Shown: positions 4,812-45,642 of the stretch, in pieces
Position numbering within the stretch: the stretch's first letter is position 1
Layout of the letters: each line of letters begins with the position of its first letter
Source of the DNA: Escherichia phage EcWhh-1
Length of the DNA stretch: 64,000 nucleotides
Reading direction: 5' to 3' (one strand)
Sequence record: MH791409.1
Translations under genes and position numbers: made by a program
The notes under the pieces: generated by a model
Databases searched by the model: none
What the model was told of the DNA's origin: nothing
What the model saw: the letters and a program-made list of their open reading frames with translations, nothing else

Positions 4812-5822
4812 TCATTTATAATACGAGTTATGGTTTTCTAGGTAAACCTGCTCAACGAACTTGTCCCAGAACTTCATATCTACCTTATCAGGCATACCGT
4901 TCTTAGCTGCCCAGATGGCATTGGTTTCGACTTCATCAACTATAGCTTCGAGCTCAGCCTGTACATCTTTAAAAGCATGTAGCCCCTGTTTGATTTCAAG
5001 GATAAATGGTGCTGTTCGTAAAGGATATTGAAGGTCACCGGTCATATAGATTTCCTTCAACTGATATCCAGCACGATAAGCATGGCTCAGAGCTTTCCAG
5101 TCAATACCTTCATTAGCTTCAGCCTTACGAGCACGTTCGCCATATTCTGCATCAAGTTTATTCAGAGATTGCTTAAGCTCGACCAATGACAGAGTAGTTT
5201 GGTACTTACGTCCGAGGACAGTATAGAACGTTTGAGGACCTGTTTTCTCGTGGTTATGAAATACCCATTCACAGAACTCGTTTTCAGGGAGCCGGTGCTT
5301 AATATCTTCTACCTTAGTACGTCGTTGCTTAGTAGAACCATCTTCTTGATAATCAACCCACTGTTCAGGAATCTGGTTAACGATAGCCAGTACACCACGC
5401 AGAGCAGCCAGACGAGAACCCTTAACACCATATTTAGAAGCTTGCTTACGAACGTACCCTAAATAGGCTTTCATGTTGGTTGTATAGAACCGAGAACGAT
5501 TGTCTTGGATAAATTTCCATACATCAGGTAAATCAGATTTAACCACCAGTTCAGGTGGAGTATGAATCATGTCCAGAGCAACTGTTTCGCCATCAGCCGC
5601 TAGTTTAAAGAAATATTTCAGGCTGTAAAGCTCGTGGTCGACATCATCTTTAGTGTTTTTGGAAGCAGTGTTATTCGTGTTCAGGTTGGTATGGTTCATA
5701 GCCGTACCTAACAGAATATCACGCGGATGCGGAACAAAGATTTCTTTAAAATCGACATCAGATTCCGGAGTACTTGTTCCATAAAGGTGGCTACCGAAGT
5801 AGCCTTTCATAACTGTTCTCAT
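4812..5822 (-). CDS. Pol-beta-superfamily nucleotidyltransferase-fold protein
   Basis: N-terminal GSHLYGTSTPESDVDF matches the GS-x(9-13)-DxD minimal NTase signature. Confidence 0.55.
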   Translation of the reverse strand: MRTVMKGYFGSHLYGTSTPESDVDFKEIFVPHPRDILLGTAMNHTNLNTNNTASKNTKDDVDHELYSLKYFFKLAADGETVALDMIHTPPELVVKSDLPDVWKFIQDNRSRFYTTNMKAYLGYVRKQASKYGVKGSRLAALRGVLAIVNQIPEQWVDYQEDGSTKQRRTKVEDIKHRLPENEFCEWVFHNHEKTGPQTFYTVLGRKYQTTLSLVELKQSLNKLDAEYGERARKAEANEGIDWKALSHAYRAGYQLKEIYMTGDLQYPLRTAPFILEIKQGLHAFKDVQAELEAIVDEVETNAIWAAKNGMPDKVDMKFWDKFVEQVYLENHNSYYK

Positions 5823-17659: not shown

Positions 17660-18619
17660 TTATTTTTCGAAAGGACGAATTAAATGATGGTTATCTTGGA
17701 ATCGTTTGATGTAGTCACTTTCACCTAAAGTCTTGTACATATTAACCACAGCTTGGTAGTTTTCCCATGCATAAGTGCGGAACCAACCTGAAGTGATTGA
17801 GGTACACACTTTCTCAAGAGCCATATAGAAACTTAATGATGGTGAAATATTGAAGTCATTAGGAACCTGTGAACGTTCTAGTGCCAGGACACAAGTTTCT
17901 TCATATACACCAGCCAGTTTAATAGCTTCAGGCAAAGCCTCGAACTTCTCACGAGAGGTCATGACTTCAGAACCTTCCTTCATATAAAAGGTATATGCAG
18001 GGCGCCCTGCCAATGCCACTGCTTCATGGATAGAGTCGTGGTCTAGCGTATAAATGGTATCGTTAAAGAACGATGATTTGTTTACATCCAATTTAGGGTG
18101 CTTGTAGCTCAACGTTTCTTTTTGACGTTGCAGCATAATTTCCTGGAGTTCTTCGTTCAGGGTGATACCTTTATTACGAAGGTATTTGATGTGGGACATA
18201 GTTTTCAGGAAGAAAGGATTATTCTTCAGGAAACGATGAGAGGTTTTGATAGCCAGACAGATATCAGGCGTGGCCCAATAAAAGCCTGTCATACGGTCCT
18301 TTTTAATATGATTTTCAGCATATTTTAGGAGACGATAACTTGAGGTGAAATCTTCGTCTTGAAGCTCACCGGTGATTTCTCGTACGTTAGTCAGAGCACG
18401 AACGATATATGCTTCAAAATAGGTTTCTTTACCGTTGTACATGCATTTAAAAGCCTGGACATCAGGGTTATCCACAGGAACATGGGCGCCGAACATCCGA
18501 GCTTTAAAGTGGTTCCATGAGCCTTGGTCGGCAATGAAATCCCAATCAGAATTTTCGATATACTTACTTTCAATCAGACCAGCGTGGTGCAGTGCACGAG
18601 AACCAATAACTAACATCAT
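17660..18619 (-). CDS. hypothetical protein with possible nucleotidyltransferase-fold N-terminus
   Basis: VIGSRA...SDWDF resembles GS...DxD but spacing (17) is atypical. Confidence 0.45.
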   Translation of the reverse strand: MMLVIGSRALHHAGLIESKYIENSDWDFIADQGSWNHFKARMFGAHVPVDNPDVQAFKCMYNGKETYFEAYIVRALTNVREITGELQDEDFTSSYRLLKYAENHIKKDRMTGFYWATPDICLAIKTSHRFLKNNPFFLKTMSHIKYLRNKGITLNEELQEIMLQRQKETLSYKHPKLDVNKSSFFNDTIYTLDHDSIHEAVALAGRPAYTFYMKEGSEVMTSREKFEALPEAIKLAGVYEETCVLALERSQVPNDFNISPSLSFYMALEKVCTSITSGWFRTYAWENYQAVVNMYKTLGESDYIKRFQDNHHLIRPFEK

Positions 18620-18632
18620 AATATTTTCCTCA

Positions 18633-18800
18633 TTAGTAGAGACGAGTTACTTCATATTTACCTAGTTCAGATTTTTTTGCTTCAACACGCGTGGCAGCGA
18701 GATTAGCGGCCTCTAGTGAAGAAAATTGAAGCACTTGTGAAGTATTCTGCCTTACGCCACCTTGTGGGTGAGTAACAAAAACAATAAGAACATTATACAT
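18633..18800 (-). CDS. possible small ORF, 55 aa (below 60-aa table cutoff)
   Basis: ATG with GAGGAAA SD fills an otherwise unannotated 200-bp gap on the coding strand. Confidence 0.3.
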   Translation of the reverse strand: MYNVLIVFVTHPQGGVRQNTSQVLQFSSLEAANLAATRVEAKKSELGKYEVTRLY

Positions 18801-18821
18801 AATATTTTCCTCAGAGTAAAC

Positions 18822-19061
18822 TTAAATTTCGGCAACGTAAGTATTATGCAATTCCCACATATCATCGGAATTACTCTCAACGATAGGAATTATCTCATTA
18901 GAAATTTCTTCTGCATAAGGGTCATTGATACAGTGGGCATCTTCAAAACGAACACCGTAATCAGACTTCTTATAGGCAAAGCCATAAATCTTTTTAAACT
19001 TGGCACGAGTAATGCGTACCGGTTCATTAGACTTATCGGACATCGGAGCGTAATACCACAT
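18822..19061 (-). CDS. hypothetical small protein, 79 aa
   Basis: ATG with GAGGAGAA SD. Confidence 0.5.
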   Translation of the reverse strand: MWYYAPMSDKSNEPVRITRAKFKKIYGFAYKKSDYGVRFEDAHCINDPYAEEISNEIIPIVESNSDDMWELHNTYVAEI

Positions 19062-19077
19062 ATGTTCTCCTCATGTT

Positions 19078-19118
19078 TGTGTAGGGTAATAGTAACACGT
19101 ATTTTTAGAGTTGTACAT
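19078..19118 (-). promoter_or_regulatory. degenerate early promoter element
   Basis: GTAGGGTAATAGTAACAC plus TTGTACA resembles the recurrent element. Confidence 0.35.
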
Positions 19119-19455
19119 CACTTCTGCAATATTCTAAAAATAATTTATCGTTGTCTACCGTATCCCAACGACGCCAAGATGGATTCCAGACCAGAGCGTT
19201 GTCACCACAATCATTGAGCTTAAAATGGTCGTAGTACATAGCTATACGTCTAGTTTCGTCACCAGAGAACCCCAGTATAGGCTCACCATGGGTGTGATAC
19301 ATATGATGGTGCATTGAGAGGTCGCATTTGTAAAACATCTCACGTTTACCACGAACGAACAAGAAGGCTTGCCCATTCATATAGAATTCTTTGTCTGTTT
19401 TCAAAAGATATTTGAATACCGAATCTTTATGCATAAATCCTCCTACCACATCCAT
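19105..19455 (-). CDS. hypothetical protein with His-rich patch (HHHMYHTH)
   Basis: ORF in operon. Confidence 0.5.
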   Translation of the reverse strand: MDVVGGFMHKDSVFKYLLKTDKEFYMNGQAFLFVRGKREMFYKCDLSMHHHMYHTHGEPILGFSGDETRRIAMYYDHFKLNDCGDNALVWNPSWRRWDTVDNDKLFLEYCRSDVQL

Positions 19456-19464
19456 GTGGTTAAA

Positions 19465-19692
19465 TTATTTTCCTAACGAAACACGAGTAGGTTTTTTACC
19501 AAAATAGTCTTCGTAAGAACCATCTAAACGACCTGCTTTAGACCGACAATACGAATCATACTTTTTGTAATAAGTCATCTCAGTATTATAACGTGGGTGT
19601 CTATCGGCCATAATAATACTTAGTGGCCAACCTTTGGCATAATCGCGAAGACCGTTTATTTTACGAATGTATCGTTTTTTCAATTTTAGCAT
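19465..19692 (-). CDS. hypothetical small basic protein
   Basis: ORF in operon. Confidence 0.45.
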   Translation of the reverse strand: MLKLKKRYIRKINGLRDYAKGWPLSIIMADRHPRYNTEMTYYKKYDSYCRSKAGRLDGSYEDYFGKKPTRVSLGK

Positions 19693-19910
19693 GAGCTTGG
19701 GTACCAGATTTCACCATCGGCACGAGCAACGAAGGTGCGACCAGCTTCTTCACCATAACAAGAGCTATTCAGCCAATCTTCGAGACGAACTTCACCGTCA
19801 TAATCGTCGAGCTCAACACCAAAATCCTGAGCAGAAGCCATATCTTTTACTTTCTTATACAGTGCAGCCAGTTCAAGTGCCGCTTTTTCTAATTCATTAA
19901 TAGTAGTCAT
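19686..19910 (-). CDS. small protein, C-terminal W-x-P-S-S-C family member 5
   Basis: Ends EIWYPSSC-stop; ATG at 19910 with AAGGTGA SD (table ORF extends to 20039). Confidence 0.6.
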   Translation of the reverse strand: MTTINELEKAALELAALYKKVKDMASAQDFGVELDDYDGEVRLEDWLNSSCYGEEAGRTFVARADGEIWYPSSC

Positions 19911-19920
19911 TTTTATCACC

Positions 19921-20130
19921 TTAGCAAGACATAGAGGAGCTAAACCAGAAACCTTCACCTTCAGGAATACCGTAATCATCACGGACCCATTCGTAATCAT
20001 CATATTCCGGACTAGAAGCTGGAATATATTCTTCGCCACCAGCGTGGAAGTGCTGACCTGTTTCGTCAGCCACGGACTGGCCTTTACGTACTAATTCACG
20101 GATTTGTTTTTCAATTTCATCAATAGTCAT
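19921..20130 (-). CDS. small protein, C-terminal W-x-S-S-S-x-x-C family member 4
   Basis: Ends GFWFSSSMSC-stop. Confidence 0.6.
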   Translation of the reverse strand: MTIDEIEKQIRELVRKGQSVADETGQHFHAGGEEYIPASSPEYDDYEWVRDDYGIPEGEGFWFSSSMSC

Positions 20131-20139
20131 TTTATTTCC

Positions 20140-20337
20140 TTAGCATTCGTAAGAGGAGGACACCCAGGAGCCACCTGTAATTGTAATACAGCCATTGTAA
20201 ATCGTGATATGACGGTCCAGATGGTTTTCACCATCGATATAGATATCAGCTTCTTCGCGTTCTTCTTTACAAATCTGGATAACGTTTTCAATAGCTGCGG
20301 CTGCAGTACGGATTGCACAATCTAGTTCACGAGACAT
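20140..20337 (-). CDS. small protein, C-terminal W-x-S-S-S-x-x-C family member 3
   Basis: Ends GGSWVSSSYEC-stop. Confidence 0.6.
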   Translation of the reverse strand: MSRELDCAIRTAAAAIENVIQICKEEREEADIYIDGENHLDRHITIYNGCITITGGSWVSSSYEC

Positions 20338-20346
20338 AATAATTCC

Positions 20347-20628
20347 TTAACATTCAGAAGAAGAGGACACCCAACCACCATTTTCTAGGCTGGTAGTGTA
20401 ATCATGTTGGTTTACAATAGCGTACTGAGCTTCACCGTATTCTTCCCAGTGGGCAAGGTCGGCTTTCAGGGCGCCAGGAGAATAATAGTCACCGCCCATA
20501 CCGCGAGCAGGGTATATATTAAAATGAGTCTCATATTTGTTAGCAATTTCCTCAGCACGTCGAATAGCTTTATGGATATCATTTACTGCTTTGGCCAGCT
20601 CTTTATTTTTACGGTAATCATTCATCAT
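20347..20628 (-). CDS. small protein, C-terminal W-x-S-S-S-x-x-C family member 2
   Basis: Ends NGGWVSSSSEC-stop. Confidence 0.6.
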   Translation of the reverse strand: MMNDYRKNKELAKAVNDIHKAIRRAEEIANKYETHFNIYPARGMGGDYYSPGALKADLAHWEEYGEAQYAIVNQHDYTTSLENGGWVSSSSEC

Positions 20629-20637
20629 AGTGTTTCC

Positions 20638-20928
20638 TTAGCACATTGCTGAAGAGGAGACCCAAGCACCAACTGTAACGACACCATTTTCAACTTCACC
20701 GCCGTTGTTTTCAATTTCATCTTTAAACCACTGGGAGCATTCATAACCGACAGGATAATATGTACGGCCTGAACCATAATCACCGGTGCCGAATTGGATA
20801 CCATACTTATCGGCAATAGCTTCGCATTCATGTTCGATGGCATCTACTTTATTCAGAAGAGCATAGATAGCCTTTTCTGCAGATTTCTCGTCATTGTGTT
20901 CTGGGATTTCAATTTCAATTTTATTCAT
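20638..20928 (-). CDS. small protein, C-terminal W-x-S-S-S-x-x-C family member 1
   Basis: Ends VGAWVSSSAMC-stop; start ATG overlaps upstream stop (ATGA). Confidence 0.6.
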   Translation of the reverse strand: MNKIEIEIPEHNDEKSAEKAIYALLNKVDAIEHECEAIADKYGIQFGTGDYGSGRTYYPVGYECSQWFKDEIENNGGEVENGVVTVGAWVSSSAMC

Positions 20929-21314
20929 GATTTACATTCCTTAATAAAGGTTTCAAGGTCATTACGTTTAGTTTGTTTTACATACTCATTATAATTAGCC
21001 ATCTCTAAAGCATATCTCTTACGGATGGGAGCATTCAAAGCATTTGTATGGCAAATATCATACACGAGAGGGATAAAATAGGCCACAACTGCTGGAGCGA
21101 TTATCATATAGAAACCCATCTCAATAGGTGTGACTCCTTCGATTACAGCCATAACCACGGTCATTACCAGGCCAATTAGGCCACCAAGCATGGCTGTAAC
21201 AATCCCTAATAATAAATTGGCACCAATATCATATTCAGCCAATTGATAAACATGCGATGAAAGACTAGGCCGTTCCATTTTGAACCTCTTTAGCGTATTC
21301 ACGGCATTCAGCAA
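20925..21314 (-). CDS. membrane protein with C-terminal LETFIKECKS tail
   Basis: Hydrophobic helices; shared C-terminal motif. Confidence 0.5.
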   Translation of the reverse strand: MLNAVNTLKRFKMERPSLSSHVYQLAEYDIGANLLLGIVTAMLGGLIGLVMTVVMAVIEGVTPIEMGFYMIIAPAVVAYFIPLVYDICHTNALNAPIRKRYALEMANYNEYVKQTKRNDLETFIKECKS

Positions 21315-22449: not shown

Positions 22450-22493
22450 AGTATTTCCTTCAGTTGGTTGGTATTTTGTAATCCATGAGGACA

Positions 22494-22523
22494 TTATACC
22501 CTGTCCTCTGAGGGTTGTAAACA
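22494..22523 (-). promoter_or_regulatory. early sigma70-type promoter (GTTTACA-N17-TATAAT)
   Basis: Near-consensus hexamers with palindromic spacer CCCTCAGAGGACAGGG. Confidence 0.55.
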
Positions 22524-44116: not shown

Positions 44117-45642
44117 TGTCAACAAACACACTAAAACACATTAGTGATAAATCGGAATTCAAATCATTCGACCCTACTGGGTCGAATTTCCCGCCTGATA
44201 TTACTAATGTTCAAGAAGCATTGGCGGCTATTTCATTAATCGGTGTCACTGGTAATGTTCCTTCAGCCACAGAAACATCCCAAGGTATTATTCGTCTTGC
44301 CACAACACAAGAAGTAATGGATGGGTTGGATGCTTATAGTGCAGTGACCCCTGCAACTTTAAAAGCACGTTTAGATATTCCTACTCAGGCAACAGAAACT
44401 TATATAGGTATTACCCGTTATGCTACTAACGCTGAAGCTATAGCAGGTACAGAGCCCCAGGCTGCAATCGTAGCAACCTCTTTGAAAGCGGTAATGGATT
44501 ATACATTTGAGAACCGTTTATCAACAGAGAACACTACAGGCGTTATCAAGATTTCAACTACACCTGCCGCATTAGCTGGTACCGATGATACCACAGCAAT
44601 GACCCCACTTAAAGTATCGCAAGCAATTGGCGCGGCCACAGCAGCGTTACCGGTTTATTCTACGGCAACGACTACAAATGAAGGTTTAGTTCGTTTAGCG
44701 ACTAATGCTGAAGTTGGCAATGGAAGTCTTTCGGTAGGTATTGCTATTTCTCCAGCCGGATTAGCCACATTAACTTCCACCGAAGCCAGAAGTGGTATTA
44801 TTAAACTCGCAGGTTGGGATATGGTATCTAATGGTACTGACCATACTGCCGCTGTTACTCCGGCATCTTTGCTAGCTCGTACAGGTAATACAGGGCGAAT
44901 TGGCTTGGTGCGTTTAACTACTACAGTTGGACAAGGCGATGGTAATACGGCCCTGGCTTATAATGCTAACGTTATTTCTACTTCAGGTGGTGAAATATGG
45001 GGTACTTTAAACGTTAATGGCGCATTACGTCGTAATGGTGTTGATGTTGTTACCCACGACCAATTATCAGATAGCGTTCCGGTAGGTACTATTTGTATGT
45101 GGGGTGGACATGAAGGTAATATCCCAGGCAAATGGCGAGCTTGTGTAGGTGGGACTTATACTGGTGGTGCATATTTAAATGCTGTTGGCGGACGTTGGGG
45201 ATGGTGGGGTGCTATTCCAGATTTCCGTGGATTATATCCTCGCGGTGCTAACATGGTTGGTGGATATTCTGAAGGTGAAGTTAACCCACATATTGCCGGT
45301 AACCGAGGAGAAGACGGTAAAGGTAAAGCCCGTTTAGGTAACGGTGTAGGTTCGTTCCCACAATCTTCTGTTCAAGCCCAAGCATTACGTTATCATAAAC
45401 ACGCCGGTGGTTTTGGTGAACATGATAACTATGGTGCTTTTGGTAACACTGCTAACTCTGGGTATGTTGGTACTCGTAAAGGACTTGACTGGGATAACCG
45501 TAGTTATTATACTAACGAAGGGTTTGAGACCACTGAACCTTGGAACCGTGATGGCCATACCACACTGAATAGTGAAGGACTTATTGCAAATGAAACACGT
45601 CCTTGGACAATGTCCGTTCTTTTTATTATTAAAGTAGAATAA
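44116..45642 (+). CDS. 12: short tail fiber gp12
   Basis: Synteny, size, Ala/Thr/Gly-rich repetitive fibre region. Confidence 0.8.
   Translation: MSTNTLKHISDKSEFKSFDPTGSNFPPDITNVQEALAAISLIGVTGNVPSATETSQGIIRLATTQEVMDGLDAYSAVTPATLKARLDIPTQATETYIGITRYATNAEAIAGTEPQAAIVATSLKAVMDYTFENRLSTENTTGVIKISTTPAALAGTDDTTAMTPLKVSQAIGAATAALPVYSTATTTNEGLVRLATNAEVGNGSLSVGIAISPAGLATLTSTEARSGIIKLAGWDMVSNGTDHTAAVTPASLLARTGNTGRIGLVRLTTTVGQGDGNTALAYNANVISTSGGEIWGTLNVNGALRRNGVDVVTHDQLSDSVPVGTICMWGGHEGNIPGKWRACVGGTYTGGAYLNAVGGRWGWWGAIPDFRGLYPRGANMVGGYSEGEVNPHIAGNRGEDGKGKARLGNGVGSFPQSSVQAQALRYHKHAGGFGEHDNYGAFGNTANSGYVGTRKGLDWDNRSYYTNEGFETTEPWNRDGHTTLNSEGLIANETRPWTMSVLFIIKVE

Follow-up and report, generated by a model that had tools for sequence, protein, structure and literature searches.

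A 64,000-nucleotide (nt) stretch of DNA from Escherichia phage EcWhh-1 (MH791409.1), called the window here, contains an array of five consecutive minus-strand open reading frames (ORFs), paralogues A to E, whose small protein products share a C-terminal motif of Trp, paired Ser, and Cys. Downstream by 1 kb, in the same densely packed gene block, is a minus-strand gene (17660–18619) for a DNA polymerase beta (Pol-beta)-type nucleotidyltransferase of 319 amino acids, composed of DUF7277 and DUF7275. The small-protein family and this enzyme are probably the two halves of one undescribed two-gene module.

Paralogue A (20638–20928) is 96 amino acids in length, has an isoelectric point (pI) of 4.35, and carries YGSGRTYYP ahead of its terminus, GAWVSSSAMC. 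Paralogue B (20347–20628; 93 amino acids, pI 5.47), with RGMGGDYYSP and the terminus GGWVSSSSEC, is the member of the array nearest to the family consensus. Paralogue C (20140–20337; 65 amino acids, pI 4.48) ends in GSWVSSSYEC and lacks the YGMGG hairpin motif. Paralogue D (19921–20130; 69 amino acids, pI 4.20) has GGEEYIP and ends in GFWFSSSMSC, while paralogue E (19686–19910; 74 amino acids, pI 4.18) ends in EIWYPSSC. The start of paralogue E is the ATG at 19910; a 117-amino acid ORF with a GTG start is an upstream extension of it. Paralogues A, B, D, and E match phrog_899 (PHROG 899; expectation values (E) of 9e-24, 3e-20, 2e-13, and 8e-10, respectively), and paralogue C matches phrog_4882 (PHROG 4882; E 2e-36) as well as a hidden Markov model (HMM) of the family (E 9e-8). 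These two PHROGs and the Pfam families DUF7277 and DUF7275 already hold the window proteins, and all four are annotated as being of unknown function.

As described in an earlier note on this DNA, all five ORFs end in W-x-x-S-S-(0–2 amino acids)-Cys with a TAA codon directly after, and the Ser codons vary among the copies (A, TCC TCT TCA; B, TCC TCT TCT TCT; C, TCC TCC TCT; D, AGC TCC TCT; and E, AGC TCA). The genes are separated by gaps of 9, 9, 9, and 10 nt, and a TAAGGA Shine-Dalgarno site overlaps every stop codon of the array. Just 10 of the 267 window ORFs of at least 50 amino acids terminate in Cys, and five of these 10 are the array, so the clustering of terminal Cys is not due to chance. 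The only further ORF of at least 30 amino acids in the window with the terminal motif is 39 amino acids in length (45132–45251). Paralogue E holds a second, internal copy of the motif (DWLNSSC) besides the terminal IWYPSSC, which the earlier note did not mention. ORF063c of Aeromonas phage 44RR2 (L003:7254–7472) is 41% identical to paralogue E and keeps both W-x-x-S-S-C motifs. Paralogue E represents a divergent subfamily with two such motifs.

The five ORFs are coding and under purifying selection, as indicated by ratios of nonsynonymous to synonymous differences (pN/pS) of 0–0.30 against phage JS98 (A, 0.07; B, 0.30; C, 0.19; D, 0; and E, 0.20). The D protein is identical in JS98, and its gene has 5 synonymous differences. 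As proteins, paralogues A to E are 19–29% identical, and the best DNA repeat in the array is a 47-nt gene-junction segment with 68–79% identity. These values rule out a recent DNA duplication as the source of the array. Genes of the A, B, C, and D types recur in other genera. The RB69 reference genome has a mutated A-type gene that is broken into two ORFs (ORF139c and ORF138c, L002:6989–7295), one of 71 amino acids without the tail and one of 33 amino acids that ends in AWVSSPALC, where Pro takes the place of the second, otherwise nearly invariant, Ser of the pair. Close relatives of RB69 have an intact, 101-amino acid A-type gene (L015:7653–7958).

A profile of the five paralogues found 63 clusters (50% identity) among 1.84 billion proteins, and a tblastn search found orthologues of paralogue A in 379 phage records. 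The motif is thus conserved at the protein level, as had been proposed, and far beyond this phage. The family is restricted to phages. Its 63 clusters are mostly 70–110 amino acids in length (range 69–175), and the match reaches the last or second-to-last residue in all but two. The consensus starts with an N-terminal helix ending in AExIADE.G..F.F, which is followed by YGMGGTYYP, a variable acidic linker, and G-x-W-x-[SAP]-S-S-x-x-C. The hallmark of the family is G-x-W-x-x-S-S-(0–3 amino acids)-Cys, with the Cys last or second to last; as tested, the motif was W-x-x-S-[ST]-(0–3 amino acids)-C followed by at most one residue, and all five window ORFs have it. Across 77 diverse members, the Trp, one Ser, and the Cys do not vary, and the adjacent Ser hardly does. 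Of 91 unique family ORFs from the loci fetched, 74 show the canonical spacing; in most of the others, Ser-Ser and Cys are separated by 0, 1, or 3 residues, and in about eight the Cys is followed by a single residue. These variants indicate that Ser-Ser is fixed relative to Trp, and Cys relative to the C-terminus. Extra upstream copies of W-x(1,2)-S-S are in excess, with 14 observed as compared to 0.83 expected from shuffles. The extra copies, the two motifs in the E subfamily, and the fixed position of Ser-Ser after Trp suggest that the motif behaves as a unit. The median pI of the family is 4.4. Searches of Pfam, NCBIfam, PADLOC, and PDB sequences gave no significant match to the small proteins, nor did these match any anti-defence family.

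Three further sequences bear on the motif. In the family representative P0062, W-[EV]-S-S-S occurs as three units in tandem. The sole small-family ORF of Acinetobacter phage Henu6 (L049:2189–2377) ends in EWSASSENS, with Ser replacing the terminal Cys. The corresponding sequence in the Henu6-related IMG/VR contig L040 is EWSASSENC, and the enzymes of the two are identical around the KVCTSITSGWF motif.

The structure of paralogue B was modelled with AlphaFold2 (AF2) from a 77-sequence alignment (mean predicted local distance difference test score (pLDDT) of 91). The model has a helix (amino acids 9–32), a β-hairpin (35–49) whose turn is formed by the GMGG motif, a second helix (51–64) that is specific to B, and a final strand (84–88) formed by GWVSS. 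The predicted fold is that of a small acidic α/β protein, in which the N-terminal helix packs on a three-stranded sheet. Confidence is lower in only the last ~3 residues. The model therefore places the motif in the last strand of a small α/β domain and in a short, exposed end bearing the Cys. This differs from the Ser-rich tail envisaged in the earlier note, since W-x-x-S-S is predicted to be a β-strand of a folded domain and not a free tail. The N-terminal halves had been described as helical and much more diverged; the model agrees with the first, but the halves are not simply diverged, as AExIADE..F.F and YGMGGTYYP are conserved family-wide. A Foldseek search with the B model against the PDB gave no match with E<2, and the MenAT1 complex (entry 8an5), which is present in the Foldseek library, was absent among the matches listed.

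Homologues of the 319-amino acid enzyme occur in 733 of 50,697 phage records (~1.4%), and 1,921 clusters at 90% identity match it. Residues G6, S7, D25, D27, and E69 are invariant in 55 homologues and correspond to the Pol-beta motifs hG[GS] and [DE]x[DE] and to the third carboxylate. The C-terminal half of the enzyme is extremely conserved. The AF2 model of the enzyme (mean pLDDT 92.6) has a MenT-like fold, and its nearest solved folds are MenT1, ANT(2''), and TglT. The fold relatives all transfer a nucleoside monophosphate (NMP) to a hydroxyl, which is the 3'-hydroxyl of RNA for MenT1 and TglT and a sugar hydroxyl for ANT(2'') and LnuA. A search of PDB sequences with the enzyme profile was empty. 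Neither AbiEii/DUF1814 (PF08843) nor RlaP (PF10127) nor the CCA-adding families matched the window enzyme or 55 relatives at E≤1; the sole AbiEii match is sub-threshold (15.4 bits, as compared to a cut-off of 22.5 bits) and belongs to a short-type relative, TunaTartare gp209. Membership of the enzyme in RlaP or AbiEii was therefore not supported.

Three DUF7275 proteins of a shorter type (Vibrio nt-1 ORF301, Streptomyces TunaTartare gp209, and Gordonia Smoothie gp16) are truncated in the N-domain and lack a W..SS..C partner. Enzymes that do have partners share the invariant residues R129, T140, R148, R165, and R281, along with H174, P175, and S277, the residue C272 (in 38 of 41), and the near-invariant motif KVCTSITSGWFR. 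R129, T140, R148, R165, R281, C272, and KVCTSITSGWFR are absent from the three short-type relatives. The short-type genes are flanked by small acidic ORFs (L046:3705–4001; L045:4633–4968 and 5009–5311; and L044:4890–5360), which have no Pfam match and a common C-terminal motif of roughly [WY]DGE..EVxPxxKTITV[YW]. They may be a second family of small-protein partners. In a metagenomic enzyme homologue of 308 amino acids (P0155), a lipoprotein-like signal and a PF06693 region replace the N-terminal nucleotidyltransferase domain; either a chimera made in assembly or a genuine exchange of domains could explain this.

The evidence for a module comes from the linkage of the two families, which was followed from both sides. 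Retrieval by the small-protein pattern alone (from a 12-sequence subset of the alignment) gave 39 IMG/VR loci, on contigs that include ones of ~370 kb (jumbo phages), 170 kb, 120 kb, and 90 kb. In 37 of these, 1–6 small-family ORFs are followed by the enzyme gene on the same strand; the other two contigs end too early. Retrieval by the enzyme alone gave four phage loci (Pseudomonas phiPsa300, Stenotrophomonas IME-SM1, Acinetobacter Henu6, and Salmonella jumbo phage PHA46) and three contigs from metagenome-assembled genomes (MAGs), and small-family genes are adjacent in all seven. The MAG contigs, 73–87 kb in length, hold the only three enzyme hits among 100,044 species genomes. A bacterial, nonphage home for the module was not supported, given this scarcity and the small genes on all three contigs. 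Altogether, 49 of 49 full-length enzyme loci have small-family ORFs (1–6 members) in T4-like, jumbo, Phapecoctavirus, Otagovirus, and other phages. In RB69, 44RR2, and a Phapecoctavirus of a different subfamily, the small genes are located just upstream of the homologue of the 319-amino acid protein. The distance from the last small gene to the enzyme gene in other phages ranges from an overlap to 1.2 kb, and is often 9–100 nt.

We also asked how this association compares with other neighbours. Enzymes were divided into 27 lineages (below 60% identity to each other), and neighbouring ORFs were clustered by BLAST. The small family is near the enzyme in 23 of 27 lineages by this clustering and at every full-length locus by the family HMM, while the next commonest neighbour family occurs in 6 of 27. 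Where a contig was long enough for a judgement, no small gene was an orphan. No fusion joining a small protein to the enzyme was found, either in six unusually long or odd enzyme homologues, whose N-termini were inspected, or in 63 small-family representatives. The co-occurrence is two-way, spans 24 full-length enzyme lineages, and extends to unrelated phage groups and genome positions, so synteny cannot explain the linkage. The nucleotidyltransferase is the sole conserved association of the small family; the membrane-protein gene upstream of the array and the four ORFs between array and enzyme gene, both described below, are not parts of the module.

Gene linkage this strict makes a joint function very likely, and we consider one for the small proteins and the enzyme to be probable. 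As to its nature, we favor a mechanism in which the small proteins present their tails to the active site of the enzyme, as nucleotidyl acceptors or as pseudo-substrate regulators, and assign it a probability of roughly 0.45. Each small protein would bind the enzyme and offer its C-terminal Ser-Ser...Cys tail to the active-site region. Most likely, a Ser hydroxyl of the tail would then be the acceptor for nucleotidyl transfer; alternatively, the tail would gate the enzyme as a pseudo-acceptor that does not react. The 1–6 paralogues, through their divergent bodies, might direct the products, or the enzyme, to different downstream targets early in infection. We infer binding, docking, and chemistry alike from the following. 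The relatives of the enzyme transfer NMP to hydroxyls, and the invariant polar residues of the small proteins are two Ser and the terminal Cys, which lie in or directly after an exposed strand at the C-terminus. The motif is repeatable, and several diverged paralogues are maintained per enzyme. Being old and individually maintained, the paralogues are more readily seen as a set of different acceptors or adaptors than as a single redundant inhibitor. Chemistry on the tail is plausible, given the intact catalytic residues of the enzyme and its hydroxyl-transferring fold relatives. The strict linkage also speaks for this reading, as do the residues and the motif that set enzymes with partners apart from the short-type relatives.

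A more specific version of this mechanism, which we regard as unlikely, is a new type of phage protein modification, in which the MenT-fold enzyme nucleotidylylates the Ser-Ser tails of dedicated small carriers, perhaps followed by elimination and capture by Cys. If true, it would yield nucleotide-bearing or cross-linked effectors acting on the host early in infection.

Several points weigh against tail presentation. We know of no direct precedent for Ser-O-nucleotidylylation of a protein by a Pol-beta-fold enzyme, and the known protein acceptors HepT, PII, and glutamine synthetase use Tyr. The location of W-x-x-S-S in a strand with pLDDT >90 implies that the Ser residues may be structural rather than reactive. 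Pairing of C272 of the enzyme with the terminal Cys, through a disulfide or a shared metal, is not supported by covariation, as locus L041 has no C272 and keeps the Cys and Henu6 shows the reverse. In the window, four unrelated ORFs and a promoter-like site separate the array from the enzyme gene. Lastly, the broken A-type gene of RB69 implies that at least one paralogue is apparently dispensable in the laboratory.

By analogy, the module appears most like nucleotidyltransferase–partner pairs such as MenAT/AbiE and HEPN-MNT, yet it does not match the sequence families that define them. As in MenAT/AbiE, including MenA1-MenT1 (Rv0078B/Rv0078A), the gene for a small protein directly precedes that for a Pol-beta-fold nucleotidyltransferase. 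However, the phage enzyme has ~170 extra and very conserved C-terminal residues (DUF7275) and falls below the AbiEii/DUF1814 Pfam threshold. MenA1 consists of two helices, whereas the phage small proteins are predicted to have a helix and a three-stranded sheet. The phage module also differs in having 1–6 small paralogues per enzyme and in residing in lytic phages instead of bacterial chromosomes. No homology of the small partner to known MenA/AbiEi antitoxins was found by Foldseek of the B model, Pfam, or NCBIfam. In the type VII HEPN-MNT (HepT-MntA) system and in GlnD/GlnE, a Pol-beta-fold nucleotidyltransferase modifies the hydroxyl side chain of a specific partner protein that acts, or has its gene, alongside it, and these systems are the functional analogy behind the mechanism we favor. 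Their acceptor is Tyr, whereas the candidate acceptors in the phage module are Ser. The phage enzyme is not a minimal MNT; no HEPN or MNT family of Pfam matched it or the small proteins, and the small proteins had no PII match. RlaP (PF10127), an RNA-ligase-associated Pol-beta enzyme of phages and bacteria, is thought to act in the healing of RNA 3' ends (PMC7824862, PMC12776372). Similarly, some DUF7275 genes adjoin genes for RNA ligase or polynucleotide kinase; unlike the phage module, RlaP is not accompanied in those two accounts by any mention of a dedicated small-protein partner. Our literature searches on phrog_899/2141/4882, DUF7275/7277, and the RB69 ORF names found no relevant paper, and a broader one on phage nucleotidyltransferases and anti-defence found nothing relevant. 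None of the literature searched describes how the two families are linked, the C-terminal motif, or the relationship of the folds.

Recognition of the module turns two sets of hypothetical proteins into one defined, testable system. The module could be a phage-borne counterpart of nucleotidyltransferase toxin–antitoxin pairs, a new protein nucleotidylylation pathway, or an RNA-end-modifying enzyme with exchangeable adaptor subunits. The multiple copies and diversification of the small genes suggest a role in phage–host conflict. The phages that carry the enzyme family include T4-like, jumbo, and Phapecoctavirus phages, among which there are candidates for therapy.

The strongest competitor to tail presentation, although we consider it unlikely, is that the small proteins act like antitoxins. 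The enzyme would be a MenT/AbiEii-like toxin that extends the 3' ends of transfer RNA (tRNA), and the small acidic proteins would sterically block its basic cleft, with the Ser and Cys being contact residues only. MenT1 adds nucleotides to tRNA 3' ends, and the 68-amino acid MenA1, encoded upstream of it, blocks its active site (PMC10435456). The MenT1 fold of the phage enzyme and this precedent of a small upstream gene speak for such a role, as do the acidity of the small proteins, the usual position of their genes upstream of and often 9–60 nt from the enzyme gene, and the small gene that accompanies every full-length enzyme gene found. However, up to six divergent paralogues per enzyme, kept by purifying selection, would not be expected of a simple antidote. 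The fold of the B model resembles neither that of the MenA1 chain nor that of any other PDB entry, and 55 members of the enzyme family do not reach the AbiEii/DUF1814 threshold. Unrelated genes are tolerated between the small genes and the enzyme gene, and an antitoxin would leave the invariant Ser-Ser, the terminal Cys, and the duplication of the motif unexplained.

A distinctly improbable alternative is that the enzyme acts on RNA, for example in the repair or modification of tRNA 3' ends, and that the small proteins dock through their tails as specificity or adaptor subunits, each steering it to a different RNA or host target. This would account for one enzyme having 1–6 diversified partners with a constant tail and differing bodies. 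The fold relatives MenT1 and TglT are bacterial toxins, and MenT1 acts on tRNA 3' ends. Some lineages have RNA-repair genes nearby; PHA46 has genes for RNA ligase and polynucleotide kinase, and a kinase-like ORF occurs in 3 lineages. At 11 of 40 loci, tRNA genes occur within 8 kb. However, most of these 11 loci share T4-like synteny, RlaP and the CCA-adding families are unmatched, and the strongly acidic small proteins are themselves unlikely to bind RNA.

It is still less probable that the small proteins work independently of the enzyme as early effectors (for example, as anti-defence proteins or inhibitors of the host), with the linkage reflecting only their co-regulation in a variable region of early genes. 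The terminal Cys would then be a metal ligand, a redox thiol, or a tag for host proteins. The proteins are small, acidic, and encoded in a hyperplastic early region, and tandem, diversified paralogues resemble genes in an arms race. The terminal thiol of paralogues B and D is free because neither has another Cys. These features contrast with the strict two-way co-occurrence in 24 full-length enzyme lineages, which goes beyond synteny, with the lack of orphan small genes on sufficiently long contigs, and with the lack of matches to PADLOC and anti-defence families.

Lastly, the small proteins might be precursors resembling those of ribosomally synthesized and post-translationally modified peptides (RiPPs). 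The enzyme would nucleotidylylate a Ser of the tail, elimination would give dehydroalanine, and addition of the Cys would form a ring like that of lanthionine or aminovinyl-cysteine (AviCys), leaving a cross-linked or reactive C-terminus. The small proteins share with lanthipeptide and AviCys precursors a C-terminal Ser...Cys, a helical N-terminal part with a motif, and several genes per enzyme, which is typical of RiPP clusters. Lanthionine rings form from Ser/Cys pairs that are 3–4 residues apart, and the AviCys of epidermin uses a Ser(-3)-x-x-Cys-COOH spacing. Extreme conservation and an abundance of His, Asp, Glu, and Arg mark the large DUF7275 domain. We nonetheless consider this reading highly improbable, since the model predicts that the Ser-Ser...Cys residues occupy a structured strand, and the end that follows it, in a folded domain of 65–100 amino acids rather than a disordered core peptide, the Ser-to-Cys spacing varies between 0 and 3 residues, the neighbours include no LanB, LanC, LanM, LanD, or radical-SAM family, and a Pfam scan of ten ORFs of the block found no dehydratase, cyclase, or decarboxylase of the LanB/C/M/KC/L/D types.

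The region of the window around the array is 90–96% identical to Dhakavirus genomes (JS98-like T4-like coliphages). In JS98, the counterparts of the array are orf125–129, all hypothetical, between the homologues of e.2 and e.6, and RB69 carries genes of types A, B, and C at the corresponding position. In T4, e.2 abuts e.3, and the small genes and the gene for the 319-amino acid protein are missing from that locus, which bears out the earlier suggestion that this is not a T4 family. The array also proved to be part of one block with membrane-protein and nucleotidyltransferase-like genes, as first noticed; the block is co-directional and densely packed, with gaps of -7 to 43 nt. The membrane-protein gene (20925–21278, minus strand; 117 amino acids; phrog_2330; JS98 orf130) is located directly upstream, its stop codon overlapping the ATG of paralogue A by 4 nt. 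It is not among the neighbour families that recur in the 27 lineages.

Four minus-strand ORFs intervene between the array and the enzyme gene (19465–19692, 75 amino acids; 19105–19434, 109 amino acids; 18822–19061, 79 amino acids; and 18633–18800, 55 amino acids). These ORFs, which together occupy 18633–19692, belong to different PHROGs and have no Pfam family and no match to the family HMM; one of them is strongly basic (pI 10). The 79-amino acid ORF, which has a homologue in RB69 ORF135c, alone recurs (3 of 27 lineages). The four are lineage-specific inserts and not members of the family.

Two minus-strand sites resemble promoters by match to consensus. A sigma-70-type site upstream of the e.6 homologue (22493–22521; TTTACA-17-TATAAT, 11/12) is a possible start of a transcript that crosses the array, and no terminator-like site occurs on the minus strand between it and 17660. 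The second site (18792–18820; TTTACT-17-TATAAT, 10/12) is located just upstream of the 55-amino acid ORF and the enzyme gene.

Two observations concern the surroundings of the module in other phages. In a 121-kb phage contig, ARAGORN assigned a tRNA with a TTA anticodon ('tRNA-Stop'; L015:3158–3251) within a tRNA cluster upstream of the module. In several unrelated phages, genes for nicotinamide adenine dinucleotide (NAD) salvage (nicotinamide phosphoribosyltransferase) and RNA repair (RNA ligase and polynucleotide kinase) are located within a few kb of the module (L003:1739–3193; L048:1–782; L050:1–1804; and L045:3162–3821), each in at most 3–4 of the 27 lineages.

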